64,000 bases of DNA. Source: Halobacteriovoraceae bacterium. GTDB taxonomy: Bacteria; Bdellovibrionota; Bacteriovoracia; Bacteriovoracales; Bacteriovoracaceae. The translations under genes were made by a program, and so were the position numbers. The notes beneath the pieces are model-generated. The model worked only from the letters and a program-made list of their open reading frames with translations. It was not told the DNA's origin and searched no databases. The stretch spans positions 384,001-448,000 of the forward strand of contig CAVRCF010000001.1 of assembly GCA_963719505.1 (NCBI GenBank). Direction: 5' to 3'. Below are positions 506-20,706 of this stretch, piece after piece (within the stretch, counting starts at the first letter, position 1; each line of letters begins with the position of its first letter).

Positions 506-3002
506 ATGAGTGACGAAAATAACAACACACCGCACATAACCACGGACATATAGCTCCACTTATTAATTCAAGATGAGATGAAAGAGTGTTATCTCGATTA
601 CGCCATGAGCGTTATTGTAGGCCGAGCACTTCCGGATGTCCGCGATGGACTAAAGCCAGTTCACAGACGAGTTCTCTATGCTATGCATATGCTTAACTAA
701 TTATCACAACAAACCCTTTCTAAAGTCAGCAAGAGTTGTTGGTGATATCATTGGTAAGTATCACCCCCACGGTGATTCATCTGTTTATCAAGCAATTGTT
801 AGACTAGCGCAAGAATTCTCTATGAGATATCCAGTTGTTGATGGACAAGGAAACTTTGGATCTATTGATGGTGATAACGCAGCAGCAATGAGATACACCG
901 AAATAAGAATGAAAAAACTTGCTGAAGAGATGATCAAAGATATCGATAAAGAAACTGTCGACTGGCAACCAAACTACGACGATTCTTTAACGGAGCCTAG
1001 AGTTCTTCCAACTAAAGTTCCAACACTTTTAATTAATGGTTCAGCTGGTATCGCAGTTGGTATGGCCACAAATATTCCTCCTCACAATCTTACAGAAATC
1101 ATGAGTGGTTTGAAATCTGTTACTAGACAGATACAGACATTACGATCGATGAGTTAATGGAAATTATTCCAGGACCTGATTTTCCTACTGCTGGTGACAA
1201 TCCAAGGAACTGCTGGAATTAAATCAGCTTACCATACTGGTAAAGGAATTATTCAAGTTCGAGCAAAAGCTGACATTGAAGTTCATGGAAAACAAGAGCG
1301 TGAGCGAATTATTGTTAACCGAAATTCCTTACCAAGTAAATAAAGCAAAACTTATTGAAAAAATAGCTAAGCTTGCTTGTGATAAAGTTCGTGACGGGAA
1401 TCTCTGATATTAGAGATGAATCTAATCAAACTTGGTATCAGAGTTGTTATCGATATTAAAAGAGGTGAACCAGCAAATATCATCTTGAATAAATTATTTA
1501 AAATGACTCAAATGCAAATCTCATTTGGAATTATTTTCCTATCTATAAGAAATGGTCAACCAAAAGTCATGAATCTTAAAGAACAACTTCAATGTTTTAT
1601 TGATCACAGACGAGAAGTTGTTATTCGTAGAACAATGTATGAGCTTAAAAAAGCAAAAGCTCGAGCTCATATTTTAGAAGGTCTAAAGATTGCAGTTGAA
1701 AATATTGATGAAATTGTTGAAATCGATAAAAGCATCTGAAGGACCTGCTCAAGCAAAAGCTTCATTAAAATCAAAATTATGAATTATCTGATATTCAAGC
1801 GCAAGCCATTCTTAGATATGCGACTACAAAGACTTACCGGTCTTGAAAGAGATAAAATTATTGCTGATTATGAAGCAGTCATGAAAGAGATAACTCGATT
1901 AGAAGAAATTCTAGCTAGTGAAGATCTTATTAGAGGAATTATCGAGAATGAGTTTGCTGAAATTCTTGAATCTTATGGTGATGAAAGAAGAACAGAAATT
2001 GTTGAGCTGCAGCGGATGAAATGCAAATTGAAGACTTTATTAAAAATGAAGAAGTCATCGTTACAATAACTCATAAAGGCTATTTAAAACGAATGCCACT
2101 TGATACATACAAGGCTCAAAAACGAGGTGGTAAAGGTGTTAAAGGATCATCTAACGAGGGTGATGAAGATTTCTTTACATAATATTTTTACAGCAGAGAC
2201 ACATGATCAATTAATGTTCTTTACGAACCAAGGATATGGTTTACACCCTTAAAGTTTACCAAGTTCCTGAAGGTACAAGAACAGCCAAGGGAAGAAATAT
2301 TGTTAACCTTCTTCCACTAAAACCAGGTGAAAAAGTTACAGAAATGATTGCTGTGCCTAAAAACTTTGACGATCATTATTTGTTATTGTCAACGAAGAAA
2401 GGATTGGTTAAGAAATCTAAACTTTGATGAATATAAAAACGTTAAACAACTCTGGAATTCGAGCGATTAAAGTAAACGACGGTGATGAAGTTTTAAGCGT
2501 AAGAGTCACAGATGGTAAAAAAGATATTCTTACTCTGTGCTGACTCAGCGGTAAAATAATTAGATTCTGCTGAAGCTGATTGTCGTCCACTTGGACGAGT
2601 TTCTCAAGGTGTAAAAGGTATCTCCATTGACGATAATGAAGAAGTAATTGGAATGGCCATTATTGATGATGGTGTTGAGATCCTAAGTATCACTTCAAAA
2701 GGATATGGTAAGAGATCAAGTGCAACAGAATACAGAAAGCAATCCGAGGTGGTAAAGGTATTATCGCGATGAAGCTTACTGAAAAGACTGGAGAATTAGC
2801 TCAAATTAAACCAGTTTCAGACAAAGATGATCTTATGATCATTACAAATAATGGTCAGGTTATTAGAACTAAAATCGCAGGAATTTCACTTCTGGGTAGA
2901 AATACTCAAGGTGTAAGATTAATTAGACTTAAAGATGGTGAAGAAGTTGTTGCCATCGAAAAGATTATTGATCCTGATGAAACTGACGAGAATGAAGAAT
3001 AG
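506..3002 (+). CDS. gyrA: DNA gyrase subunit A, broken into several frames by indels (probable sequencing/assembly errors)
   Basis: ATG at 506 after AAGGA; fragments carry [43 protein letters not shown], the GyrA-box QKRGGKG (~2117) and GRNTQGV; acidic tail ends at TAG 3002. Confidence 0.93.
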
Positions 3003-3774
3003 TTACCTCTTTTTTATACTTTTTATAATAGCTGGATGTGGATTCACGTCCGGCTCTTATAAAGAAATTCTACAAGCCCAAGAACATATTAGTGATAGAG
3101 AGTATGACAAAGCAGTTAGGCTCTATAAAAGTATTCTCCTAAGAAGACCATCAAAGAATATTGATATCAAAATAAGCTATCAGTTAGCAGAAATTGATTA
3201 TCTTTACCTAAATAAGTACAGGGAAGCCGTATCCTATTACGAAAGAGTCTCCACCATAACTGACGATCCCCTTTGGCAAACTAAAGCACTAGAGAAAATT
3301 GGCTTAATAACTTTTGAAAATCTAAAGGACTACAAAGTCTCTCGAGAAGCCTATAAAAAATTGAAGAACTTCATGCCACGCCTAGAGAACCAAGACTTCT
3401 ACAATCTAAGATTTGCTTTGACATATTTTCATGAACAAAACTACTCCATGGCTTCGGAATACTTGAAAGAGATTGTTGTCGAAGAAAAATCGAAATATAT
3501 TACAGATGCTTATTACCACATTGGGCTTATTAACTTTTATCGCCGTAAATGGGAGACAGCTGTTTCTTATTGGTTTGAATATTTGAAACGAGAAAAAAGA
3601 AAAGATAAAATTGTTCAAATTAAATTTCTCATCGCCAATGCCTATGAAAGTGGTGAAAAGCTTAAAGAAGCCTATAATGTTTATTATAGTATTATTGGAA
3701 GTTATCCCAATCCCGATGTTATAAAAGCAAGATTAAATTCCCTATATCAAAGAAGAGTGGCGAGAAAGCGATGA
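2992..3774 (+). CDS. TPR-repeat lipoprotein
   Basis: [16 protein letters not shown] lipobox-like signal followed by TPR-like helices; overlaps gyrA end. Confidence 0.75.
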   Translation: MKNSYLFFILFIIAGCGFTSGSYKEILQAQEHISDREYDKAVRLYKSILLRRPSKNIDIKISYQLAEIDYLYLNKYREAVSYYERVSTITDDPLWQTKALEKIGLITFENLKDYKVSREAYKKLKNFMPRLENQDFYNLRFALTYFHEQNYSMASEYLKEIVVEEKSKYITDAYYHIGLINFYRRKWETAVSYWFEYLKREKRKDKIVQIKFLIANAYESGEKLKEAYNVYYSIIGSYPNPDVIKARLNSLYQRRVARKR

Positions 3775-8071: not shown

Positions 8072-11000
8072 CTAACATGGGTCTATTTGCTGTGCAATAT
8101 AATTCGTGAATTCAAGCAGTGTTTCGGGCTTTACGGAATCTTTGAAAGAACAGTTGACTGAAAAATTCGGATTTAGTTTATAGACCTTTGGCCTTTCCAT
8201 AAAAAATTGAATAACTTTGTTGCGCAGAGTCACATCTTCTGCAATTTCCAGCTGATTAAAATTGAGAATGATTGATTTAGACAGCACTTTTATACTATCT
8301 AGTGCGAGGTGTTGTAAATTGATACGAGATTTGAGGATCAAATATAGGTTTTGCGCCTCTTGAGGAGAGAGACCAAATTGATCTTCAATTTCTTCAATAA
8401 TTTCATCGAGTAGATCGTGAGATTTACAATTAGATAGACGCTTATAATACTTTAATCTCAGCCCGGTATCTTCGATAAATTTGTTTGGTAAAAAAGAAGG
8501 AAAGGGTGTTTGAATTTCAATCGATCGGCTGTGATTAACAGGCTGCCCTTTTAATTCCTCAATAGATTCTTGAAGGAGCTCCATATATAGTTCTAAACCA
8601 ATATTTGCGATATGACCTGATTGCTCAGCTCCTAGTATATCCCCGCTTCCTCTAATTTCTAAATCTGAGGTTGCTAGCGAAAAACCAGAACCCATATCTG
8701 CATAGGTCTGAAGAGCTTTAAGTCTCTTTGTTGCTATGTCGGAGAGGTTCCTATTCGACGGCACTAGAAAGTAAGCATAAGCTTTTCTATCAGAGCGGCC
8801 GATTCTCCCTCTTAATTGATGAAGTTGAGAAAGTCCAAAGGTATCGGCCCGATCGATGATCATCGTATTAGCAGCTGGGATATCAATTCCAGATTCGATA
8901 ATCGTTGTCGAAATTAAAATATCGAATTTATGTTCATAGAAATCTTTTATTCTTTTTTCTAGCTCCCTCTCAGGCATCTGACCATGCGCCACAACCAAGG
9001 AGGCGTCGGGAACTAATTTTTTAATGGATGCTGCATACTCTTCAATGTCATTAACCTTATTGTGAACGATAAAAATCTGTCCACCTCTAGACAATTCTTT
9101 TTCAATGGCATCTCTAACAGTTTTACCGTCATCCTTGATAATATAGGTCTTTATAGACTGCCTCTTAAGGGGCGCTGTTCTTATTAATGAGAGTTCTCTG
9201 ATTCCGAGAAATGACATTTGTAGTGTTCTTGGAATTGGAGTGGCCGTCATAACAAGATTATCTACAGTAGCCTTTAGTAACTTTAGTTTCTCTTTATGAG
9301 CAACACCAAACCTCTGTTCTTCATCGATAATAATTAAACCGAGATCTTTGTACTTTATTTTATCTGAGAGAAGTTTATGAGTTCCAATTAATATATCTAC
9401 TGTTCCTTGCTCTACTCTTTGCAGGATTTCTTTAACTTGGGAAGCTGACTTAAACCGCGACACATACTCAATATTGACGGCAAAGCCTTCAAAGCGCTTT
9501 ATAAAAGTGTTGTAGTGTTGATAAGCTAAAACTGTTGTTGGAACCAGGATCGAAACTTGCTTTTTATCGAGAACAGCTTTAAATGATGCCCTCATTGCAA
9601 CTTCAGTTTTTCCAAAACCAACATCACCACAAATAAGTCTATCCATTGGTGTTTCTTTTTGCATATCTTCGAGGACATCATCAATAGCTGATAGTTGATC
9701 GGGAGTTTCTTCAAACGGGAAATCCAACTCGAACTCTTTAAAGTGATGGTCAGGCTCAGAAAAAGCAAATCCTTTTCTGAGTTTTCGTTTGGCATTTAAT
9801 TCTAAAATATCAAATGCCAGTCTCTTAACTGAGCTTCTCGCTTTTGATTTAGCTAATTCGAATTTTTTTGTTTTAAGGCTATCAACTCTTTGCTCAGTAA
9901 TTTGATTGGCATGTTTTTGAATTAAGTTCAGCTTGTAAACGGGCAGGTAAACTTTATCATTATCTTTGTATTCGATGATAATAAAATCATTTTCTTGGTT
10001 GCCCATTTTTATATTTTCCATACCTAAATACTTACCAACACCATGAACCTTATGAATGAGGTAATCACCAATTTTTAGTGTTGACAGCTGTTCAGCAAAA
10101 AGGTCTTCAGTATTTAGTTTTTTAGATTTTCGCGTTTTCTTAATCTTTTCTGCGAAAAGATCAGACTCCGAAAGAAAGAATGTGTTTTCATTTTTGTAAT
10201 AAAATCCAGACGTGAGGGAAATTTGAAAATATTCAATCTTAGATTTTAGCTCTTTGCTAGAAATATTCTCTGAGATTAAAAATTCCAATTCCTTTCTAGA
10301 GCTATCATTTCTATAAAGAATATACAGTTTGCCTGAAGCACCTAATTTAGACTCAATTGCTTTTATGAGCTGATGGAGGTACTCATATTTATTTTTGGGC
10401 TCAACTTGAGAATATTTCTTTAAGAAAACCTTTGTTGATTCAAAATGAAGATTCAAAGAATTATCTAAGTTGTCACCCAGGTCAATATTGAGTGATATCT
10501 CGTCAATATTAAACTCCTTAAAATCTTTCTGCAATAACGAGTTGAAATGGTAAATCTGTTCAGGTTGAGGAAAGACTTCATCATCACTTGGATCTTCAAC
10601 TGACCTTTTAACTGATTCATAAAAGTTAGCTTCGCTTTCATTAAACTGATTTTCTGAGGTATCTTTTTCAAAAAAATGAAGCTTATAACTTGGAGTTAAA
10701 AAATCAGTTAAAAGCAAGTTCGTTTCAAAAAAAAGAGGAAAAAACAGCGGATAATTCTCAAACAACATTCCCTGAGATAATTTTTCAAAAATTTCATTTT
10801 TATTCTTATTCTTTAACTTTTGTGTTGGCGAATACTTTGGAAGTTTTGATCTAAGTGATAACACAGAATCTGGAGAGATAATCCCTTGGGGGGATTGTGC
10901 AATCGATACCGTTTGAACAGGTTGGTCCTTTAAGGTTTTGAGGTTATCTTTATCAATTTTGTATATTTCCTCAATCATATCGTCGAAATATAAAAGGCGA

Positions 11001-11557
11001 ATTGGATCACCGTCCAAAGGAAAGATGTCAAAGATCTCTCCTTTTTTAGAAAAGACCCCAGGCTCTTCAACTGTTGGTGATTTACTATAGCCAAAAGAGC
11101 CAAGTTTTAACGCCAGATCATCTGGGGAAATAATGTCTGAGACTTCTATCTTAAAGGAGTTTAAAAAATGCTCTTTTGGAGGTAGCTTTAGGTGCATTGC
11201 AGAATAAGTTGTAATGATAACTCTTTTTCTCTCCGGATGAGATACCAAAGCTTGCAATGTGAGCTGCCTTTTGTAGAGTGCTGCTTCAGACTGAATAATT
11301 GACGAAAACGGATTATCAGTAAGACCTGGAAAAAAAAGGATCTCTTTTTTGTATTGCTTTAAGGTCTCATATGCCTTTTCAGCTTGCTCCTCTGTTCGAA
11401 AGATAAAAACATCTGAATTTTGAAAATTTGTCTCTTTCTTAAAGAAATTAAAATAAATAAAGCTCCAAGTAGAAAAATCAACACCAGACAGTTTTACTAC
11501 GCTATTTTTATCAAAAATAGTTTTTATGTTTTTTACAATACTCGAAAAGTCGGACAT
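8072..11557 (-). CDS. mfd: Transcription-repair coupling factor
   Basis: DRLICGDVGFGKTEVA, IIDEEQRFGV, TATPIPRTL, QLRGRIGRS; 1161 aa. Confidence 0.98.
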   Translation of the reverse strand: MSDFSSIVKNIKTIFDKNSVVKLSGVDFSTWSFIYFNFFKKETNFQNSDVFIFRTEEQAEKAYETLKQYKKEILFFPGLTDNPFSSIIQSEAALYKRQLTLQALVSHPERKRVIITTYSAMHLKLPPKEHFLNSFKIEVSDIISPDDLALKLGSFGYSKSPTVEEPGVFSKKGEIFDIFPLDGDPIRLLYFDDMIEEIYKIDKDNLKTLKDQPVQTVSIAQSPQGIISPDSVLSLRSKLPKYSPTQKLKNKNKNEIFEKLSQGMLFENYPLFFPLFFETNLLLTDFLTPSYKLHFFEKDTSENQFNESEANFYESVKRSVEDPSDDEVFPQPEQIYHFNSLLQKDFKEFNIDEISLNIDLGDNLDNSLNLHFESTKVFLKKYSQVEPKNKYEYLHQLIKAIESKLGASGKLYILYRNDSSRKELEFLISENISSKELKSKIEYFQISLTSGFYYKNENTFFLSESDLFAEKIKKTRKSKKLNTEDLFAEQLSTLKIGDYLIHKVHGVGKYLGMENIKMGNQENDFIIIEYKDNDKVYLPVYKLNLIQKHANQITEQRVDSLKTKKFELAKSKARSSVKRLAFDILELNAKRKLRKGFAFSEPDHHFKEFELDFPFEETPDQLSAIDDVLEDMQKETPMDRLICGDVGFGKTEVAMRASFKAVLDKKQVSILVPTTVLAYQHYNTFIKRFEGFAVNIEYVSRFKSASQVKEILQRVEQGTVDILIGTHKLLSDKIKYKDLGLIIIDEEQRFGVAHKEKLKLLKATVDNLVMTATPIPRTLQMSFLGIRELSLIRTAPLKRQSIKTYIIKDDGKTVRDAIEKELSRGGQIFIVHNKVNDIEEYAASIKKLVPDASLVVAHGQMPERELEKRIKDFYEHKFDILISTTIIESGIDIPAANTMIIDRADTFGLSQLHQLRGRIGRSDRKAYAYFLVPSNRNLSDIATKRLKALQTYADMGSGFSLATSDLEIRGSGDILGAEQSGHIANIGLELYMELLQESIEELKGQPVNHSRSIEIQTPFPSFLPNKFIEDTGLRLKYYKRLSNCKSHDLLDEIIEEIEDQFGLSPQEAQNLYLILKSRINLQHLALDSIKVLSKSIILNFNQLEIAEDVTLRNKVIQFFMERPKVYKLNPNFSVNCSFKDSVKPETLLEFTNYIAQQIDPC

Positions 11558-11644: not shown

Positions 11645-11917
11645 ATGGATGTTAAGCTTTACATTTTCAATGCACTTATTTATCTCATTGTGCCAGCGGG
11701 ATTCTTCTGTCTATTCTTTAGACCCAATAAAGACAAAAACTTGTCTTTTCGTCTTCAGTTTTTAAAAACCAAAAGACCGGATCAATCTAAAATAATATCT
11801 GTCATAGGACTGGTTATTTTGACTTGCCTTATATTGATCTATAGAGCTGATCTCATTTTTCTGATGTCGACAATTCTTCTTTTGTTGCTCCTTTTTAGAA
11901 AAAGATTTATCAAATGA
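11645..11917 (+). CDS. Membrane protein, possible highly divergent NuoA
   Basis: 90 aa, three TM helices with long first loop (FFRPNKDKNLSF) and basic tail; first gene of overlapping membrane operon. Confidence 0.45.
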   Translation: MDVKLYIFNALIYLIVPAGFFCLFFRPNKDKNLSFRLQFLKTKRPDQSKIISVIGLVILTCLILIYRADLIFLMSTILLLLLLFRKRFIK

Positions 11918-12732
11918 TTGAAATACTAAAAATGTCATTGATACAAGTAAGTGGGGCATTTATGGGTATGCTCCTTATTGCCATCAGCGGATATGTTGAA
12001 ACCTTTAAGATTTCTAGAGGGGTCTTCAATTTAATTAAATACTTTAAATTGACGAGTAGAAAAATAACAGTCTCCAGCTTTAAAAATAAAATGCCAGCAA
12101 ACTCTTATCTCATTAAGTTTTTATTATATATTCTCTTTTCCTTTTTTATTTTTAATACAACGACTTCAAATATTGAAATGCAAAGATACACTTTTTTGAT
12201 CTTAACCGTTTTATATTTCATTTTTGATGTCACGCTTTACTTGGAAGACAGTACACCCAATAAGAGTATAGAAGGTTATTTAGCAAGAAAATCAATTTTG
12301 ATGGTTCTGATTCTGAGTAGTTCTATATTCTCTTTATACCTTCTTGAAAAAGTCCCGGCGGGGAGTATTTATATTATTGCTTTAAAAATAGTAATCTTCC
12401 TCAATACCACTGGCCTAATCTATCTCTACGATTTTTTGTCCGAAAAATCATCTGAAGAAGTCTTGAATGCATTCCTTAGAAAAATTCTTTTTTACTTCCT
12501 CTTAATGAGTTTGTTCGTTTCATTAAACTCTTTTGGTTCGAGTGCTCAGTCATTGATTAAATACGGCTACTTTAGCGTGAGCATTGTCCTTGTAGAGTTC
12601 ATGGCAACATATGTAAAAACGAACCTAGGCTTCGTAAAGATAAATAGTGCCCTGAACCTTCTGGTTGATAACTTACTCGTTTATTTAATTATTTTTTGCG
12701 TTGTCATCGCGGGGTTAATCTATGTTGTTTAA
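11914..12732 (+). CDS. Membrane protein, possible highly divergent NuoH
   Basis: 272 aa; C-terminal YVKTNLGFVKINSALNLLVDNLL aligns by eye with NuoH WIRATLPRFRYDQLMxLGWKxLL. Confidence 0.5.
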   Translation: MIEILKMSLIQVSGAFMGMLLIAISGYVETFKISRGVFNLIKYFKLTSRKITVSSFKNKMPANSYLIKFLLYILFSFFIFNTTTSNIEMQRYTFLILTVLYFIFDVTLYLEDSTPNKSIEGYLARKSILMVLILSSSIFSLYLLEKVPAGSIYIIALKIVIFLNTTGLIYLYDFLSEKSSEEVLNAFLRKILFYFLLMSLFVSLNSFGSSAQSLIKYGYFSVSIVLVEFMATYVKTNLGFVKINSALNLLVDNLLVYLIIFCVVIAGLIYVV

Positions 12733-13144
12733 TATCTCAATATTGATAGCTATCGTTTTATGTGTATGGTCACTTTATACGAAAAAATATTTTTACGACT
12801 ATCTTTTAGCCATCGTTATGACGACTGTCTTTGCTTACCTTATGGCACAAAGAGTTTCACTTTTGGGAACAAGCTTAATTACATTTTTAGCGTTTATGAG
12901 TTTAGTGCTCTTGATGAGTAATTTTCTAGCCACATCGGAAAAAATTAAACGAAGAATTTATAAATCTTATTGGGGAAAAGTATTTATTTCTATGGTCTTT
13001 GGAGCTGGGATTGTTTTTACTTTCAAAAAAATAGCTCTGCCAAATCTCACCTTTAATAGAATTGAGTTTACCGAGGACTATTACCTTCTCATTGTTGTTT
13101 TTTTAATATCGATAAGTTTAAAGAAACAGAAGGAAGAAAAATGA
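12722..13144 (+). CDS. Membrane protein, possible highly divergent NuoJ
   Basis: 140 aa, about five TM helices, NuoJ-like topology and position. Confidence 0.45.
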   Translation: MLFNISILIAIVLCVWSLYTKKYFYDYLLAIVMTTVFAYLMAQRVSLLGTSLITFLAFMSLVLLMSNFLATSEKIKRRIYKSYWGKVFISMVFGAGIVFTFKKIALPNLTFNRIEFTEDYYLLIVVFLISISLKKQKEEK

Positions 13145-13392
13145 TATACTTCTCAATAATCTCTTTTATCTTGTCCGTTAGATACGTCTTTATTAGCTGG
13201 AATACCCCTGATAAACTTATTGGTGGATACTACTTAATTTTGGGTGGAGTGTCGTTAGTTGCAGCACATCCACGTATTTCCGACGAAAACATTATTCTCA
13301 CTGGTGTAGCTATTTGCTGTTCTGTATTGAGTCTTGGATTACTACTAGGAAAAATTGGAAAGCAGATGAAAAATGATGAGGAACTTATATGA
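13141..13392 (+). CDS. Membrane protein, possible highly divergent NuoK
   Basis: 83 aa, three TM helices, ISWN at the RRN position, SLGLLLGKI at the AVGLAI position. Confidence 0.45.
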   Translation: MIYFSIISFILSVRYVFISWNTPDKLIGGYYLILGGVSLVAAHPRISDENIILTGVAICCSVLSLGLLLGKIGKQMKNDEELI

Positions 13393-14225
13393 TTCTCATC
13401 GCTTTTACTATTCAAATTATTCTTTTATTTTTCTTAAAAAGTCATAAGACTTTCTCGGTGATCGGTGTTGGGTTACTAATGTCTTTGATAAACTTCTTTG
13501 ATTTATTTTCACAGTATTCATTATTAAAGCTCTCGATAACTGCGAATATTATCTATATCATCATTATGATTATCTTTTTGATCCAACAGATAAATAAAAA
13601 AAATGTAAAAGCAAAAAACATCATCTTCTTTAGCTTTATATTTGCCACAATGAATACGTACATTATTGCTGTGAGTTTACTTCTTTCGCTAATCTTTAAT
13701 CAAGAAACAGGTTTAGATGACAGGCCAAAAACTTTAATAAAACTGCTTTGTGTTATTTTTATAGGGGACTACTTTTTTGGAGGGTGGAATATATCCTTTC
13801 TTATACCATTTCTTATTCTTGTAGGATTAGCTTTATCTCAACTTCGGCTATTTACTGCTAGCAGCTTTTCGTACTTTACTACGAGTGCCTTTATAACAGC
13901 TGCAGAAGGTGGACAATACTATACCTTTTCCCTAGTGGGCGCGGTTTTAGCTATCCTTATTTTGAGAGAATTTATTGCCAATAGAAAAGAGAAGATAGTC
14001 AGGAATGACTTTATAGATAAAGTCACTTTTAGTCTGTTGATAACTCCACAACTAAGAGTTAAGAGAGCTAATATTGTTGAGACACAGACACAGTCTTCTG
14101 AATCTACAGATATAGCTCAGTATAGAAATGATATTGTTAATAAAGAGGATATTCTTGATCTTTTGTTGGCTTTCTTGGCCGTCGGATCAATAACCTATCT
14201 GGGGGCAACTTATGGAAATATATAA
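13389..14225 (+). CDS. Membrane protein, possible internally deleted NuoL
   Basis: FIGDY (cf. RIGD), LALSQLRL (cf. KSAQLPL), NDFIDKVTFSLLITP followed by a hydrophilic stretch and final TM (cf. lateral helix). Confidence 0.45.
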   Translation: MILIAFTIQIILLFFLKSHKTFSVIGVGLLMSLINFFDLFSQYSLLKLSITANIIYIIIMIIFLIQQINKKNVKAKNIIFFSFIFATMNTYIIAVSLLLSLIFNQETGLDDRPKTLIKLLCVIFIGDYFFGGWNISFLIPFLILVGLALSQLRLFTASSFSYFTTSAFITAAEGGQYYTFSLVGAVLAILILREFIANRKEKIVRNDFIDKVTFSLLITPQLRVKRANIVETQTQSSESTDIAQYRNDIVNKEDILDLLLAFLAVGSITYLGATYGNI

Positions 14226-14838
14226 AGTACTCCTTGATTATTGGGGACTACTGGTTCCGCTTTCAACTCTGATATTTATAAAGAAAAATTTTTATAATAC
14301 TTTAAGTATCTTCCTTTTGAGTTTGATCTTAGTCTTTCCAAAAGATTTAAAAGAGTTTCAGATCTACATTGCCCTTTTTGTAGTTGCTTTGATTATTCCT
14401 AAAGAAAAAAGTAAACTTGATGAGACAATATCGAGATTTGTTTCAGCGATTTGCCTTGTTGCCTTTTTGATATTGAACTCAGAAGAAAGTTTAAAGATAG
14501 ACGAAATATACTTTCTGATTCTAGTCTCATCGATACTGTTATCGATTAAAGGGTTTAAAAGAAAGCTTCTGACAATAGCCAGTGTTTCTATGCCCATTGT
14601 GACTACCGTGCTGAGCATACCGACAAAGGTATTACTTGTGATCCCGTTCTTATTTCTCCCATTATTATTTGAACGACTGAGCAAAAAAGAGTTTAGTACC
14701 TATTGTTTAGGTTGTCTTATAAGCTTAGGAAGTTTCACATCCGAACCTATTCTTTCAACCTATGTGGGATTTGCGATACTATCAATATTTGTGGTTTCTC
14801 CAAACGGAGAAAAGGCTCTTTCCGAGGATGAGATATGA
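14212..14838 (+). CDS. Membrane protein (NuoM position)
   Basis: 208 aa hydrophobic ORF; assignment by position only. Confidence 0.3.
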   Translation: MEIYKVLLDYWGLLVPLSTLIFIKKNFYNTLSIFLLSLILVFPKDLKEFQIYIALFVVALIIPKEKSKLDETISRFVSAICLVAFLILNSEESLKIDEIYFLILVSSILLSIKGFKRKLLTIASVSMPIVTTVLSIPTKVLLVIPFLFLPLLFERLSKKEFSTYCLGCLISLGSFTSEPILSTYVGFAILSIFVVSPNGEKALSEDEI

Positions 14839-15950
14839 GCGCACTATCGATAATTGGTATTATTTCTGTCTTTTATGCTCTTTGCTCAGAAAAATTAAAC
14901 TTTCTAAAGGGTACACCTACTCGATGTATTATTTTCTTCGTATTTTTAGCTTTTACGGTGCAATCCTTTCTTTACACAAATATTTTACTATCACCTTTTG
15001 GGTTACTTGTTCTCATCACCCCCCTACTTTATGGCTTTTCAGTTCTCATAAAAGAACAAGATGATAGGCATGATATTTTTTATATATTAATTATGATGAT
15101 ATTAGTTCGAAATATTGAGTCTACGACTTTCTTCCTTTTCTTAATTATAGCGAAAGGTATTTTTGTAGCCTTTCAGACTGAAGGAAGAAAAGAAGAGCGT
15201 TTAAACTATATCAAAAATAGCCTTTCACAACTTTTTATAATGCTAGTAGCTTTTTTGGCCTATTTGTATCTCAATTCTAGAAATACTATCTATCTCATTC
15301 CACTACTATTATCACTATACTTCCATATGAAGTCGATTGGGCTAAGGGTCTCTCACAAGATGTTTGATGACAGGCCTGCAAATATTGCAAAGTCAATAAT
15401 ATCTACATTAATGATACCTTACCTCATTCTTTACAAGATCTCCGCTGTTGAGAATGGATTAAACTTTCTGGTTCTTGATGGAGCAAAGTACACTGTTTTT
15501 TCTTTCTTTATAAGTTTTTCACTTTATATAACTATTCGATATAGAAGTAATAGAGTTATCTATCCTATTTTATCTTCTCTATTACTGGGATATTTATACT
15601 TGAGTTCCGCCATCTCTTTTGAACTCATGGTAGCACTAGACCTCCTTTCATATTTTTGTATCTTTATCGCTAGAGGAATAAGTAATCCAAAGGTAAGAAA
15701 TATATTTAAGTCCCTTTTATTACTAACTCCAATGAGTCCATTTTTCTATTTGGTATTTAAAAAAATTGGGGATGCTGATCTTGGGCGTCTGGAACTTTTT
15801 GGAATTATGACTCTTTTAGTTTTATTTTACCTAAACGTTATTAGTATTAAAGAAAATCTATGGAAAAAAAATTCAAAAATATTACAAGCAAAGCTGTTGG
15901 CATGCTTCTTATCAATATTAGTGGTAGTATACATCTATGACACAATATAG
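14835..15950 (+). CDS. Membrane protein, possible highly divergent NuoN
   Basis: EERLNYIKNSLS (cf. EAALKYFLLGA), KMFDDRPANIAKSIIST (cf. DVYEGAPTPVTAFLST), SLLLLTPMSPFF (cf. SLAGIPPTAGF). Confidence 0.5.
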   Translation: MSALSIIGIISVFYALCSEKLNFLKGTPTRCIIFFVFLAFTVQSFLYTNILLSPFGLLVLITPLLYGFSVLIKEQDDRHDIFYILIMMILVRNIESTTFFLFLIIAKGIFVAFQTEGRKEERLNYIKNSLSQLFIMLVAFLAYLYLNSRNTIYLIPLLLSLYFHMKSIGLRVSHKMFDDRPANIAKSIISTLMIPYLILYKISAVENGLNFLVLDGAKYTVFSFFISFSLYITIRYRSNRVIYPILSSLLLGYLYLSSAISFELMVALDLLSYFCIFIARGISNPKVRNIFKSLLLLTPMSPFFYLVFKKIGDADLGRLELFGIMTLLVLFYLNVISIKENLWKKNSKILQAKLLACFLSILVVVYIYDTI

Positions 15951-18900
15951 AGTTAGACTCCAAAATGACCGAGTTATTGGACCTCTAAACCTAGAGGATC
16001 TAATTGAACTAAAAAAAGCCGGTAAGATTGACGGAAGTGAAGAAGTTCAAATTTTTCCAACTGGCGATTGGAAAAAGATGAGTTCTTTCCCCGAGCTTTC
16101 AACACTATCAAATGTCCTCGAAAATGATGACGATGCTGCAACATTTATAAGAAAGATAAACTTAGAAGAACTCAAAGAAGAAGCTGACCAAACGCAGCAG
16201 TTTCCAAAAAAGTTTGAATATGAAAAAAAGACTCCCTTCTCTAGTAAGTCAGAAAAGGTTGAAAAAGAAGATGAAACGATTGTCCCAGAGAAAAAGGATG
16301 AAGTTGAAATTCCAGATGCAACTGTCATAAAGAAAGTCGCTAAGCCAGCTGAGCCTCAAGATGATGATAAAACAAAAATAAATACGAATACATTGAAGTA
16401 TCTTGAAGAGTTAAAGAAAGCCAAGGAAAAAGAGCTTGAGGAAGAAGCACTGGCTGTAGAGCCTGAGCCAGAAATTGACCTAGATTCTGATGCGACACAA
16501 GTAATCTCATTAGATGCTCTGAAAGACCTAAAGCACTCGGAGAAGTCTTCAGAAAAAGAGTTTGCAAAGGAAAAAGCAGACTTTCTCAAAGAGAAAAAAG
16601 AGATTGAGAAAAAAATAAAAGAATCTGTCGTTGAGGAAGAAGAAGAGGACGAAGATAATGAGGATGATGCAAAAAAAGCAAAGAAAAAGAAACTTCTACT
16701 CATCTTTGTCGTTTTTCTAATAGCCTATGTTGTCTTATTTCCTGAAGAAGAAAAGAAATCTACCTTGAAGAAAATAGTTTTACAGGAACCAAGAATTGAA
16801 TTTCCTATACGATTCGATCAACCTGACAAGACTAAAGCCTCTATCCTTTATAAAGAGGGACTGATTTTAGAAAAAGAAGGAAGTTACTTATCAGAAATAA
16901 AAGCAGGAATTAAGTATAAGTTATCGGCGGAGAATCAATTTAATTCGAACCCTGCTCTGGCTCGTCTTATATTCCTCTACTCAAGCCATCTGGATAACTC
17001 TACAAATAAAAAGGAAGATGCAAATACGATTTTCAAATTGGTACAAATCTTTAGAACCAAAGCTCTGCAAGACCCCGATTTCACAGCCGCTGTTGCTTTG
17101 TTTTACATCCAGACAGAAAAATATGCAGCTGCTGTTAATACCGTAGAAAAATATAACGCCATTAAAAAGAGTAACCCCACTGTTGAGCTCTTTGCGGTCT
17201 ACCTGGAAGCGCTTCTAAAAATTGGAGATCTCGTTAAGGCAAAGGCTGTTGCAACTAAAATAGAAACAGTACCAATGAAGGACAGGTCGATATACGTTCA
17301 CCTCTCTCTCATCAATTATTATAGCCTAATTGGTAATTTTGAACGTCCTTCTGAAATTATAGCTGAAGCAAGAAAGATATTTAAAAGATCAATTCCTATA
17401 AACTTAGAAAGAGCGAGACTTCTTTTTTACAAAGAAGATTTCGAATCTTTAAAAAAGCTTTTAAGACAGTTACGAACAGTTAATCTTGGAAAGTCTAGAG
17501 TTCACTATGCTAAATACCTAGAATATATGGGACTGGTTGCAGCGAAAGAAGGTGATGAAAAGAAGGCTGAGTACTATTTTGATAAAGCTTTAAAGACTCA
17601 TGAGTCTTTAGAGTTAAGGTCACGCCTAGCCGAACTCTTTGTTCCGGGGGCTGCAGATCAAAACAGTATGGTCGCAGAAAGTAAGGCCATTCAATTAATT
17701 GCAAACTCAAAAATTCAAGCTAAAAAAGGAAACTGGAAATTTGCTTTTAAGGATGCTCTTGAGGCAAATAGAATTGCGTCTAACTTTATTCCGGCCAAAA
17801 TATATTTAGCCAAATTACAAATAGATCAGAGTATCTTTAAAGAAGCGATTGAAACACTTGAAGAGCTTTATAAAAATAATTCAAGAAATCCTGAAATAGT
17901 ATTTACGCTAATTGATGCTTATATAGAGTCTTACAAGTTTACTGATGTACAAAGGCTTCTGACGATTTTAAATACTTCGGAGATGAGAAATAGACCGGAG
18001 TACACCTCTTTGACGGCTAAGTATTATATCTACAAAGAGGATTTTGCTAGTTCAGTCGCCTGGCTTCAACGTGCGATAAATAAAGACCCTTTAAATGATC
18101 AAAATCAATTTGAACTTGCTAAAATGTTTATTCGTTACAATAAGTTTAACCGTGCAAAAACTCGTTTGAATAAGGCGATGGATCTGGATCCTGCGAACAC
18201 CGACTACCGTGTTGCTTATTCAAAAATTCTTTACGAAGTCGATGGTGCCTCTTTTGCGATTGGATATCTTTATGATGTTCTCCAAGACTTCCCTGATAAC
18301 GGCAAGATTTTAAGTCAAATCGGTATTTCATATTATAGAAGTGGGCAGATAAAAAGCTTTGAAGGTATTAAGGAGAAGCTGCAATCTATACCAAATAAGG
18401 ACACGACTCTTTATGAATTCTTAATTAAAGCTGCCGTGATCGACGGCAAGCCACAGGATCAAATAAAATATAGTCAAAAACTTATAGAGCTTAATCCAGG
18501 TGATCTAAAAACGAGATTGAATCTAGGTAAGATCTATATGCAACAAGAAAAGTATAAGAAAGCCTTGATAGAGTTTAAAGCAATTGAAGATCGGTTGGAA
18601 ACATATCCTATGCTACAGCTCTATATGGCAAATCTTTACGTCTTAACAGACAATCTGGATATGGCGACCGAGTTAGCGATGAAGGAGATAAAAGCCAATT
18701 CCTCGAGTGAACTTGGATATATTCTACTTGGTGATATTTATTCAAAAAAGAAAGATTATGTAGAGGCTGAAAACTATTATAAGAAAGCTCAAAAGATAAA
18801 CGGCGAGAACGTTGATATGCTTTTGGGACTGGCAAAGATAAACTTCAAAAAAAGCCAATATGACTTAACACTTGATCTTTTTCTAAAAGCTCGAGAAAAT

Positions 18901-19059
18901 GCTCCAGAAAGAGCAGAAATACATAAGCTATTGGGCGACGCTTATAGAAAAATGGGACAGAGTTCATTGGCCTTAGAGTCATATAAATTGTTTCTTGAGC
19001 TTTCACCAACGTCAAAGTATAAAGATGAAATAAGCACTTATATTCAAAAAATGCAGTGA
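15937..19059 (+). CDS. Large bitopic TPR protein with N-terminal GYF_2-like domain
   Basis: YRVRLQNDRVIGPLNLEDLIELKKAGKI...W (GYF_2-like), acidic linker, single TM (LLLIFVVFLIAYVVLF), long TPR region. Confidence 0.8.
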   Translation: MTQYRVRLQNDRVIGPLNLEDLIELKKAGKIDGSEEVQIFPTGDWKKMSSFPELSTLSNVLENDDDAATFIRKINLEELKEEADQTQQFPKKFEYEKKTPFSSKSEKVEKEDETIVPEKKDEVEIPDATVIKKVAKPAEPQDDDKTKINTNTLKYLEELKKAKEKELEEEALAVEPEPEIDLDSDATQVISLDALKDLKHSEKSSEKEFAKEKADFLKEKKEIEKKIKESVVEEEEEDEDNEDDAKKAKKKKLLLIFVVFLIAYVVLFPEEEKKSTLKKIVLQEPRIEFPIRFDQPDKTKASILYKEGLILEKEGSYLSEIKAGIKYKLSAENQFNSNPALARLIFLYSSHLDNSTNKKEDANTIFKLVQIFRTKALQDPDFTAAVALFYIQTEKYAAAVNTVEKYNAIKKSNPTVELFAVYLEALLKIGDLVKAKAVATKIETVPMKDRSIYVHLSLINYYSLIGNFERPSEIIAEARKIFKRSIPINLERARLLFYKEDFESLKKLLRQLRTVNLGKSRVHYAKYLEYMGLVAAKEGDEKKAEYYFDKALKTHESLELRSRLAELFVPGAADQNSMVAESKAIQLIANSKIQAKKGNWKFAFKDALEANRIASNFIPAKIYLAKLQIDQSIFKEAIETLEELYKNNSRNPEIVFTLIDAYIESYKFTDVQRLLTILNTSEMRNRPEYTSLTAKYYIYKEDFASSVAWLQRAINKDPLNDQNQFELAKMFIRYNKFNRAKTRLNKAMDLDPANTDYRVAYSKILYEVDGASFAIGYLYDVLQDFPDNGKILSQIGISYYRSGQIKSFEGIKEKLQSIPNKDTTLYEFLIKAAVIDGKPQDQIKYSQKLIELNPGDLKTRLNLGKIYMQQEKYKKALIEFKAIEDRLETYPMLQLYMANLYVLTDNLDMATELAMKEIKANSSSELGYILLGDIYSKKKDYVEAENYYKKAQKINGENVDMLLGLAKINFKKSQYDLTLDLFLKARENAPERAEIHKLLGDAYRKMGQSSLALESYKLFLELSPTSKYKDEISTYIQKMQ

Positions 19060-19065
19060 GGAAAT

Positions 19066-20358
19066 ATGCACGATATAAAACAAATCGAATCAAATTTAGA
19101 AGACTTCAAGAAAAACTTAAATAAAAGAGGGTTTGATCTGTCTGTCATCGATAGCGTCGTCGAGTTAAATTCACAAAGAAAGGCGCTCACTACTAATGTT
19201 GAAACGGCCCAAGCTCAAGTTAAAGCTAAATCAAAAGAAGTTGGATCTCTTATGAAAAGTGGAGATAAAGATGGTGCTGAAAAGATTAAAGCAGAAGTTA
19301 CAAATATTAAGTCTTCCATTGATGAAGATAATACAAAGCTTGGTGAAATAAAATCAACGCTAGAGTATCAACTTTCAACGATTCCCAATCTTATTTCCGA
19401 TGACACACCTATTGGGTCTGACGAAAGTGCAAATATTGAGGTCAATAGATGGGGAAAGCCCAGAGAATTTGACTTTAAGGTAAAGGACCATGCAGACCTT
19501 GGAGAAGAGCTGGGTATGCTTGATTTCGAAAAAGCTGCTGAGCTAACTGGTGCACGGTTTTGTGTCTATAAAGCTGATTTAGCTCGAATGGAAAGAGCTC
19601 TTGCAAACTTTATGTTAGATTTTCATTTGGAAAATGGTTACGAAGAAATTATTCCACCTTTTATTGTTAATGAAAAAACTCTCTATGGTACAGGCCAGCT
19701 TCCCAAATTTGGAGAAGACCTTTTCAAGTTAACTTTGGAAGATAAAAACTGGTATCTTATTCCAACATCAGAAGTACCTTTGACAAATCTTGCAGCCAAC
19801 GAGATATATAACGAAGAGCAACTTCCATTTAAGTATACAGCTTTTACACCTTGCTTTAGATCAGAAGCTGGTTCGCATGGAAGAGATACCAGAGGGCTTA
19901 TTAGAGTCCATCAATTTAACAAGGTAGAGATGGTTAACATAACTCATCCTGATCAATCTGATAAAACCTTGGACGAGATGGTAAAGTCTGCTGAGACAAT
20001 CTTAGAGAAGCTTAACCTACCCTTTAGAACAGTTAGACTTTGTACTGGAGACATAGGCTTTGGATCAAATAAGACATTTGATCTAGAAGTTTGGGTTCCT
20101 TCTCAAAAAACTTATAGAGAAATTTCATCATGTTCAAATTGTCATGACTTTCAAGCGCGCCGCGCTAGTATTCGATTTAAGAAGCAAGGCGAAAAACCTC
20201 AGTTTGCTCACACCTTAAATGGATCAGGACTAGCTGTTGGACGTACGATGGTTGCTATACTTGAGAACTTTCAAAATGAAGATGGGTCGATTACTATCCC
20301 CGAAGTTTTAAGACCATATATGGGTGGAAAAGAAAAAATTGTCCCTAAAAATAAATAA
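19066..20358 (+). CDS. serS: Serine--tRNA ligase
   Basis: YLIPTSEVPL, CFRSEAGS, RVHQFNKVE, EISSCSN, HTLNGSGLAVGR. Confidence 0.98.
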   Translation: MHDIKQIESNLEDFKKNLNKRGFDLSVIDSVVELNSQRKALTTNVETAQAQVKAKSKEVGSLMKSGDKDGAEKIKAEVTNIKSSIDEDNTKLGEIKSTLEYQLSTIPNLISDDTPIGSDESANIEVNRWGKPREFDFKVKDHADLGEELGMLDFEKAAELTGARFCVYKADLARMERALANFMLDFHLENGYEEIIPPFIVNEKTLYGTGQLPKFGEDLFKLTLEDKNWYLIPTSEVPLTNLAANEIYNEEQLPFKYTAFTPCFRSEAGSHGRDTRGLIRVHQFNKVEMVNITHPDQSDKTLDEMVKSAETILEKLNLPFRTVRLCTGDIGFGSNKTFDLEVWVPSQKTYREISSCSNCHDFQARRASIRFKKQGEKPQFAHTLNGSGLAVGRTMVAILENFQNEDGSITIPEVLRPYMGGKEKIVPKNK

Positions 20359-20674: not shown

Positions 20675-20706
20675 AAAAAACCGAGTTTCATAGCTCGGTT
20701 TTTTTT
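20675..20706 (+). terminator. Intrinsic terminator after the tRNA pair
   Basis: AAAAAACCGAG-TTTCATAG-CTCGGTTTTTTTT. Confidence 0.85.

Follow-up and report, generated by a model that had tools for sequence, protein, structure and literature searches.

Seven consecutive, very hydrophobic open reading frames (ORFs) lie at positions 11645 to 15950 of the 64,000-nucleotide stretch analysed here (the window), which comes from a Halobacteriovoraceae bacterium (assembly GCA_963719505.1, contig CAVRCF010000001.1). They are probably the membrane arm, A'-H'-J'-K'-L'-M'-N', of a second complex-I-derived assembly that does not use NADH and does not pump, a 'pseudo-complex I' that would still assemble. The gene set recurs at one site across the family, in a series that runs from recognizable nuo genes to unrecognizable ones. 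The seven genes are under purifying selection, and the NuoB-like partner encoded elsewhere in the genome has lost the cysteine ligands of iron-sulfur cluster N2. Assembly, the loss of pumping and the role are what we infer from the sequence. We regard the window set as a second complex I membrane arm because it shares the slot of such arms and carries position-specific profile signals, motif remnants, matching transmembrane helix (TM) counts and a NuoL-type tail.

All seven ORFs lie on the + strand and start with ATG. The first four stand at the NuoA, NuoH, NuoJ and NuoK positions: A' (ORF1, 11645..11917, 90 amino acids, aa), H' (ORF2, 11914..12732, 272 aa), J' (ORF3, 12722..13144, 140 aa) and K' (ORF4, 13141..13392, 83 aa), with 3, 8, 5 and 3 TM predicted by a crude hydropathy scan. 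L', at the NuoL position (ORF5, 13389..14225, 278 aa), has eight predicted helices, arranged as seven TM, a 60-aa non-membrane stretch and one terminal TM. M' (ORF6, 14212..14838, 208 aa) is assigned to the NuoM position by its place alone and has 6. N', at the NuoN position (ORF7, 14835..15950, 371 aa), has 12 TM by hydropathy, or about 12-15 helices when a predicted model with 15 is taken into account. From ORF1 to ORF7 the junctions overlap by 4, 11, 4, 4, 14 and 4 nucleotides (nt), four of them ATGA-type overlaps and two longer. ORF calling returned the lengths and the all-overlapping junctions exactly as a preliminary description of this DNA had listed them.

The slot occupied by these genes is shared across the family. 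Directly downstream of ORF7 is a gene for a tetratricopeptide repeat (TPR) protein that is present in 61 of the 61 family genomes sampled, and the DNA upstream of it was read in 54 of the 60 others; six were left out where the TPR match was partial or at a contig end. In the loci read, the TPR gene comes directly after nuoN or N'. Eleven of the 54 loci hold canonical nuoH-J-K-L-M-N only, immediately before the TPR gene. Twelve hold a full-length, distinct set that we call type 2 (L of 545-675 aa; one with L in three ORFs, one partly fetched). A complete seven-ORF set of A/H/J/K/L/M/N-sized genes was found in 27, in which lengths span about 600 to 217 aa for L, 500 to 228 aa for M and 472 to 310 aa for N. 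Three loci have a second set partly inside the fetched DNA. In the last one, G001 of the window's own genus, nothing stands between the flank and the TPR gene: a 1150-aa ORF in the orientation and gene context of mfd, called mfd by position, lies 115 nt from it. A' takes the first position in all 29 complete second sets. Reading the mfd-serS interval in relatives, as the preliminary description had suggested, finds recognizable nuo genes in the slot that grade to unrecognizable ones.

In the three genomes that were read further upstream, the canonical operon is nuoA-H-J-K-L-M-N without peripheral genes, and in all three the second set begins right behind canonical nuoN. This fits a report on Bdellovibrionota in which every member studied has a nuoAHJKLMN cluster at one and the same conserved site, predatory strains having a second nuo cluster as well (PMC13147790). 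Pairwise E values among the canonical NuoN proteins of our sample run from 1e-77 to 1e-205; between genera, most second-set proteins are without any pairwise match. One type-2 NuoL, in G011 (66% complete), is split into ORFs at 1719-2750, 2678-3079 and 3102-3641 of L043 (G011:C8; 343, 133 and 179 aa). Each piece matches one intact NuoL of relatives, and the split could reflect frameshifts or assembly errors.

Sequence similarity was followed through second sets tiered by the length of L: type 2 (10 used), tier F (about 590-600 aa, 4 sets), tier I (400-560 aa, 18 sets) and tier E (300 aa or less, 7 sets including the window's). End-to-end alignment (hhalign -glob) was dropped, its matches being meaningless. 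With hhalign against type-2 profiles, tier I reaches 99.4% for H, 92.0% for J, 94.8% for K and 99.5% for N. Tier I N' cross-matches M (90.8%) and L (71.1%) too, which their paralogy would predict. In tier E, window included, N' alone is significant, at 94.3% over 279 columns of type-2 NuoN (L 0.4%, M 0.1%). Iterated hmmsearch tells a similar story by position. The type-2 H seed recruited 10 second-set H' and misplaced none, the J seed took in 7 J' (with that of G002, a same-genus genome, at E 2e-22) and one type-2 K, and the K seed took in 8 K' (G002's at E 4e-10). The L, M and N seeds fused into one antiporter-like pool with a few wrong-position sequences.

Profiles for the window's genus were built from three sequences, those of the window, the metagenome contig L088 and G002. 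Compared with tiers I and F together, they give 43% for A, 25% for H, 84.5% for J (a match that spans 23 columns only), 22% for K, 2.7% for L, 0.2% for M and 17% for N. The diagonal is the row maximum in six of the seven rows, M being the exception, and five diagonal scores (36.6, 32.0, 31.4, 25.1 and 24.5) exceed all 42 off-diagonal ones (maximum 24.0). Against canonical plus type-2 profiles the row maxima are J (20%) and K (43%, 77 columns) only. Together with the synteny series in 54 relatives, these position-specific signals support the descent from an A-H-J-K-L-M-N membrane-arm operon that had been proposed for the seven ORFs.

Motif remnants can be traced through the same intermediates. 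MAFFT alignments reproduce three pairings that had been made by eye, at the ORF2 C-terminus and at EERLNY and SLLLLTP..FF of ORF7. The C-terminal YVKTNLGFVK of ORF2 grades via KWLIPKLRSDQ into WVRWSIPRLRYDQ of recognizable NuoH. In a 41-row N alignment, LLTPMSPFF of ORF7 aligns with GLPFTPLF and GMPFTPWF, then with LAGIPLTSGF of less eroded proteins; the Lys that follows this motif in GFxxK is lost in the window's genus and absent in ORF7. KEERLNY of ORF7 aligns with SKEAAVKY (EAAVKY of type-2 NuoN) and retains the Glu, and Gly stands in place of the Lys of KLGAFPFH, the TM7 Lys column.

Membrane-arm subunits of complex I have about 3/8/5/3/16/14/14 helices (A/H/J/K/L/M/N). The counts of A', H', J' and K' equal those of canonical and type-2 NuoA, NuoH, NuoJ and NuoK. 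L' and M' are unlike full-length NuoL and NuoM in this respect, and the half length ascribed to them earlier is borne out; N' has 12 helices (15 in a low-confidence model). NuoL is laid out with a lateral helix followed by a single C-terminal anchor helix. The hydropathy scan, and at that level only, finds in L' the hydrophilic segment and last TM that had been pointed out in ORF5. The non-membrane stretch before the terminal helix measures 105-109 aa in eight of nine canonical NuoL, 82-86 aa in five of ten type-2 L, mostly 54-64 aa in tier I and 53-64 aa in six of seven tier-E L'.

The charged relay of complex I consists of two Glu in NuoK and, in the antiporter-like subunits, the TM5 Glu and the Lys of TM7, TM8 and TM12. 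Canonical NuoK of these genomes has E36 and E73 among four membrane-embedded charges. K' has neither Glu and no embedded charge, L' has none, M' one and N' four. The medians for L, M and N fall from 8, 7 and 9 in canonical proteins to 3, 4 and 3 in tier E. The preliminary description was right about the loss of both NuoK Glu and of most membrane-embedded charges. Its further claim, that the central Glu/Lys axis is lost, agrees with the missing TM7 and TM12 Lys of N' but has one exception, the Glu at the NuoN TM5-like position, which is kept in the window and in two of three close relatives (L088 and P0003).

The window holds no peripheral-arm genes (nuoB/C/D/E/F/G/I), as had been remarked, but the genome does. 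Its one NuoD-family match lies in a translationally coupled cluster 0.8 Mb from the window. The cluster encodes X, a lipoprotein-like protein of 507 aa with no Pfam family (L090 7278-8801, G000:C1; G000 is the window genome); B', NuoB-like, 141 aa, aligned to PF01058 over profile positions 17-127 of 128; CD', a fused NuoCD-like protein of 509 aa (PF00329, 64.5 bits, and PF00346, 108.7 bits, both above cut-offs); and I', in the place of NuoI, a 149-aa 2x[4Fe-4S] ferredoxin with 8 cysteines. All 14 further genomes that were fetched also have an X-B-CD cluster. By Pfam, the cluster of G021, whose type-2 set is intact, is X-NuoB-NuoCD-NuoE-NuoF-NuoG; that of the window genome passes from CD' straight to I', with no NADH module between them.

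Erosion has reached this cap as well. Six genomes (G021, G022, G059, G046, G012 and G006) retain the four N2 cysteine columns of NuoB; G074, G049, G016 and all five tier-E genomes (G000, G002, G013, G069 and G078) have lost them. G073 was left out of this comparison and of the next. One canonical, two type-2 and one F-tier sequence share 101 invariant NuoD columns; 57-81 of these remain in tier I, 45-50 in tier E and 46 in the window genome, whose CD' lacks the N-terminal GPxHP-type columns. I' keeps all eight cysteines in five of five tier-E genomes. Between the window genome and G002, CD' is 42% identical, less than the TPR protein (65%) and more than the membrane subunits (16-28%).

Family-wide, fused CD genes accompany second sets, and canonical-only genomes are mostly without fused CD. 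The exceptions are G054 and G004, which have fused CD and no second set at the TPR locus, and G018, with a second set and no fused CD detected; G003, where the TPR gene starts the contig and the upstream DNA is not assembled, stands outside this comparison. The length of L' and the Pfam score of CD' are correlated (Spearman 0.64, n = 34, among kin that are not independent). G001 (87% complete) has neither the seven ORFs nor CD' by family or protein search. In the four genomes of the window's genus and in G013, we found no PF00146 (NuoH) and no PF01512 (NuoF), and the four genus genomes are also without PF00361; NqrA is present in five of five. The earlier suggestion to look elsewhere in the genome for an intact nuo or nqr set is answered accordingly: Nqr is there, and canonical complex I was not found.

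Several observations on these clusters stand beside the main argument. A lipoprotein-like gene of about 500 aa stands directly before NuoB or NuoB' in 15 of 15 clusters, intact G021 among them, and X could have gone unnoticed as an accessory subunit or assembly factor of type-2 complex I. A fatty-acid desaturase gene (361-362 aa; PF00487 in the window genome) follows I' in G000, G002 and G013 (L090 11289-12377, L109 and L112). Six genomes (G020, G068, G009, G008, G054 and G053) have extra NuoD-family genes of 403-477 aa with full-length matches of 357-373 bits. These genes stand beside the canonical (about 390 aa) and fused (about 500-600 aa) forms and hint at a third system, complex I-like or hydrogenase-like, in some members of the family. 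At G013:C24:50342-54169 there are two PF00361 ORFs (722 and 497 aa), in a genome where NuoH and NuoF were not found; they may be an Mrp-type antiporter rather than complex I.

The seven genes evolve very fast and are nevertheless constrained. The same set stands before TPR and serS in G002 (90/273/143/83/269/209/372 aa) and in two near-identical metagenome contigs (90/272/140/83/277/208/371 aa). Identity of ORF1-7 to contig L088 is 57/55/39/53/37/31/53%, with five of the seven alignments gap-free, compared with 83% for the TPR protein. Identity to G002 is 16-28%, compared with 65%; H', for instance, is 55% identical to L088 and 25-27% to G002. Proportions of non-synonymous differences (pN) from L088 are 0.27-0.45 in the seven ORFs and 0.11 in the TPR protein, and the synonymous proportions (pS) are 0.62-0.85 and 0.80, both saturated. 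The non-synonymous rate of the seven ORFs is three to six times that of their TPR neighbour, and M' is the fastest of them (31% identity to L088). L088 and L089 differ in the operon at one site only and are uninformative for dN/dS. Ungapped, smoothed hydropathy profiles of the window and G002 correlate with r 0.52-0.83 in six of seven pairs (19-27% identity), a level that no circular shift reaches; M' gives r 0.25, reached by 14 of 189 circular shifts. Because pN is well below saturated pS, lengths are constant and hydropathy stays in register, the seven genes are under purifying selection, with length, frame and topology held, yet very fast-evolving.

These results can be combined into a model. 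In less eroded relatives the assembly is a complete second complex I, with its membrane genes in tandem behind canonical nuoAHJKLMN and its peripheral genes elsewhere. In the window's lineage the NADH module has been lost, B' is stripped of its four N2 ligands and L' and M' are cut to about 8 and 6 helices. Most membrane-embedded charges have gone as well, yet purifying selection has kept the seven membrane proteins, CD' and I'. An A'/H'/J'/K' heel would carry the B'/CD'/I' cap in the arrangement retained from complex I, and N'-M'-L' would be clamped by the tail helix of L'. Because such an assembly would be capable of neither NADH oxidation, N2-mediated electron transfer to quinone nor canonical Lys/Glu relay pumping, it would be a 'pseudo-complex I' with a non-bioenergetic or altered role, possibly exerted jointly with the probably co-transcribed and putatively membrane-anchored TPR protein. 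We favour a complex that assembles without using NADH or pumping because all ten genes of the two unlinked clusters, and the cysteines of I', have been kept.

A more specific version is tentative, and on balance doubtful. It holds that, in bacteria which depend on Nqr and have given up real complex I, an eleven-subunit pseudo-complex I is a working non-respiratory membrane machine. Its parts would be the seven membrane subunits and a cap without N2 but with the two NuoI clusters, and it could serve, for example, as a redox-sensing or structural envelope module with the TPR protein and the lipoprotein encoded before NuoB'. Its evolutionary rates would erase family-level similarity, with topology and subunit count fixed.

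A number of results weigh against the pseudo-complex I reading. Pfam and NCBIfam, searched at E up to 10, give no match to a Nuo, Mrp or other relevant family for any of the seven window ORFs. Profiles of L' and M' from tier I score 0.1% and 2.1% against type 2, no sequence signal for either; L' has no detectable similarity to NuoL, and M' has no profile signal in any comparison. In the genus-profile comparisons no cell is significant on its own, and against canonical plus type-2 profiles H' falls to 0.0% and N' to 0.7%, the best N' cell being M at 3.6%. A 13-sequence H' profile has its row maximum at the intermediate tier at a non-significant 5%, and has no match in PDB at E up to 10. Searches with jackhmmer from the window ORFs reached H' and N' of G002 only. 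B' is below the Pfam cut-off for its family (18.3 vs 27 bits), dN/dS is only bounded, synonymous sites being saturated, and the conserved cysteines of I' could mean surviving redox chemistry. Co-assembly of the seven proteins, and of the cap with the arm, is likewise something we infer. AlphaFold2 models, computed from positional alignments of 41 and 39 rows, are all-helical and of low confidence: for ORF7 the predicted local distance difference test (pLDDT) is 61.5 and the predicted template-modelling score (pTM) 0.43, and for ORF2 they are 68.8 and 0.58. Foldseek with these low-confidence models found nothing in PDB at E <= 0.001. Among 48,161 chains, VIA-align lists for ORF2 HycD (7z0t_D, Z 6.5, 219 residues, rank 27), the NuoH homologue of formate hydrogenlyase, and for ORF7 Nqo14 (4he8_N, Z 7.0, 154 residues, rank 40). 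Both are within noise, unrelated helical proteins scoring equal or higher Z.

Other searches add little in either direction. The intermediate set in G006 and three G013 proteins also have nothing relevant in Pfam or NCBIfam, and phmmer all-against-all links the window ORFs to G002 for H' and N' only. ORF7 found 3 proteins, itself included, in a word-indexed collection of 5.8 billion, and a 4-row alignment found 4; a metagenome scan with ORF7 alone gave nothing, and with the alignment two loci. In a protein atlas, ORF2 has a NuoH cluster at rank 6 (score 0.90), which we treat as a lead only, and ORF5 has no usable match. A complex prediction of J' with K' (score 0.01, mark 0.32) gives no verdict either way. 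Of the profile and structure comparisons that had been suggested for the ORFs, weak position-specific profile signals came out; a significant match for the window sequences alone did not.

We consider it unlikely that the genes encode a working, divergent redox-driven ion pump. In such a pump a ferredoxin-like donor would feed the two [4Fe-4S] clusters of I', and N2, quinone and the Lys/Glu relay would have given way to an acceptor site and an ion path of an unconventional kind. The eight cluster cysteines of I', kept in the five most eroded genomes despite fast evolution, fit this, as do the 46 invariant NuoD columns left in CD', the TM5-like Glu of NuoN kept in the window, L088 and P0003, and purifying selection on all parts. 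N2 is the sole bridge from the NuoI clusters to the quinone site in complex I, however, and all four of its ligands are gone from B'. The GPxHP-type loop columns of NuoD are not kept in the window genome, membrane Glu is missing from K', membrane-embedded charges number zero in L' and one in M', both of which are about half length, and NuoF was not found in any of the four genus genomes.

It is equally improbable that the seven ORFs are a decaying relic without protein function, open only since stop codons would be polar on the TPR gene and the essential serS. All junctions do overlap, and the sole strong + strand terminator-like hairpin follows serS. The ORFs are 16-28% identical within the genus, compared with 65% for the TPR protein, and relatives show every stage of erosion, down to the deletion in G001. 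A 3-row H' profile found 10 representatives among 1.84 billion, so few as one might expect of a relic. Against this, pN stays well under saturated pS, ORF lengths in three lineages differ by 1-9 residues or not at all, and hydropathy profiles still line up where identity is about 20%. Nor does the unlinked B'/CD'/I' cluster lie upstream of serS; G000 and G002 keep it together with the seven ORFs, and neither is found in G001. The clean deletion tolerated in G001 means that polarity does not force retention.

That the ORFs are an unrelated, lineage-specific membrane set mimicking the nuo size pattern is very improbable: the want of any family, significant window-specific profile or fold match would suit it, but the slot is identical to that of demonstrably Nuo sets, the weak profile scores are dominated by the diagonal, motifs grade through intermediates, L' has a NuoL-type tail, and J' and K' of G002 join the NuoJ and NuoK profiles. 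An Mrp-type cation/proton antiporter, which would combine MrpA/MrpD with MrpE/F/G and have no homologue of NuoA or NuoH, was also considered and rejected. PF00361, the MrpA/MrpD family, occurs neither among the window ORFs nor elsewhere in the window genome, genes at the A and H positions are present, and relatives have NuoH in the latter.

Energy-converting hydrogenase-related (Ehr) complexes were reportedly described by Marreiros et al. in 2013. A later account relates them to complex I and to group 4 hydrogenases and describes them as having lost ligands of the catalytic site, with membrane subunits retained and function unknown (PMC6349859). The likeness to the pseudo-complex I proposed here is by analogy only: Ehr complexes have a hydrogenase-type large subunit without Ni- and Fe-coordinating residues, whereas the lineage described here is that of a complex I with fused NuoCD and with A and H subunits, and what it has lost is N2. 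Membrane-arm-only nuoAHJKLMN clusters beside a full complex I are known from the marine actinomycetes Salinispora, Streptomyces and Kocuria (PMC6676996). In that text those copies are annotated as ordinary Nuo and proposed to be proton pumps, unlike the window set, which family models do not recognize and which has lost its relay residues.

The window set resembles the canonical NDH-1 arm in gene order, its slot by the TPR gene, the helix counts of A, H, J and K, the NuoL-type tail and the motif remnants of H' and N'. It differs in the absence of any family-level match (0/7), half-length L' and M', and the loss of the NuoK Glu and the TM7 and TM12 Lys of N'; its partner B' has no N2, there is no NADH module, and the canonical operon is absent from the window genome. 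Compared with a complete complex I, the genome retains NuoC/NuoD-like and NuoI-like proteins in CD' and I'. Relative to intact type 2, such as that of G021, both clusters of the window genome are positional orthologues, down to the lipoprotein-like gene of about 500 aa before NuoB. Intact type 2 differs in keeping the N2 cysteines, NuoE/F/G, an L of about 640 aa and an M of about 490 aa, and in G021 the two NuoK Glu.

Few molecular machines are as conserved as complex I, and recognizing its membrane subunits is usually trivial. A complete paralogous complex I can lose its NADH module, N2, almost every relay residue and half the length of two antiporter-like subunits, and can drift until family models no longer detect it. 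Selection still acts on all ten genes of the two unlinked clusters after the loss of the canonical enzyme. What is new here is that the set survives without the canonical operon, that a matching peripheral cluster erodes with it, and that both are missing together from one congener; for this phylum the literature searched, which did not cover subscription journals, holds no report of either an eroded second set in tandem or a cap without N2. If the proteins do assemble, they would form a multi-subunit 'pseudoenzyme', a natural experiment on what the complex I architecture needs for assembly as opposed to catalysis. The series also shows that runs of 'orphan' membrane ORFs can be placed by synteny where profile and fold searches fail.

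The genes around the seven ORFs are readily identified. Upstream and divergent is mfd (8072..11557, - strand; Pfam TRCF, CarD_TRCF_RID, DEAD and Helicase_C). Downstream, the gene for the 1040-aa TPR protein (15937..19059, + strand; Pfam TPR families), the conserved neighbour, overlaps ORF7 by 14 nt at its start and is followed by serS (19066..20358, + strand; Pfam Seryl_tRNA_N and tRNA-synt_2b). ORF1 to serS is probably a single transcription unit with serS as its last gene, judging from the overlaps and from the hairpin at 20675-20704, 3' of serS. Other terminator-like counts in the window are about those of shuffled sequence, and a promoter scan gave no excess (26 vs 30.7 in shuffled sequence). 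The G+C content of the seven-ORF region is the same as that of the flanks (0.29-0.36).

The TPR protein is tied to the complex I membrane operon across the family. Its residues 1-120 match no Pfam family, and a by-eye resemblance to GYF domains gains no support there. Visual inspection shows a single hydrophobic helix near residue 250, preceded by an acidic and lysine-rich stretch.

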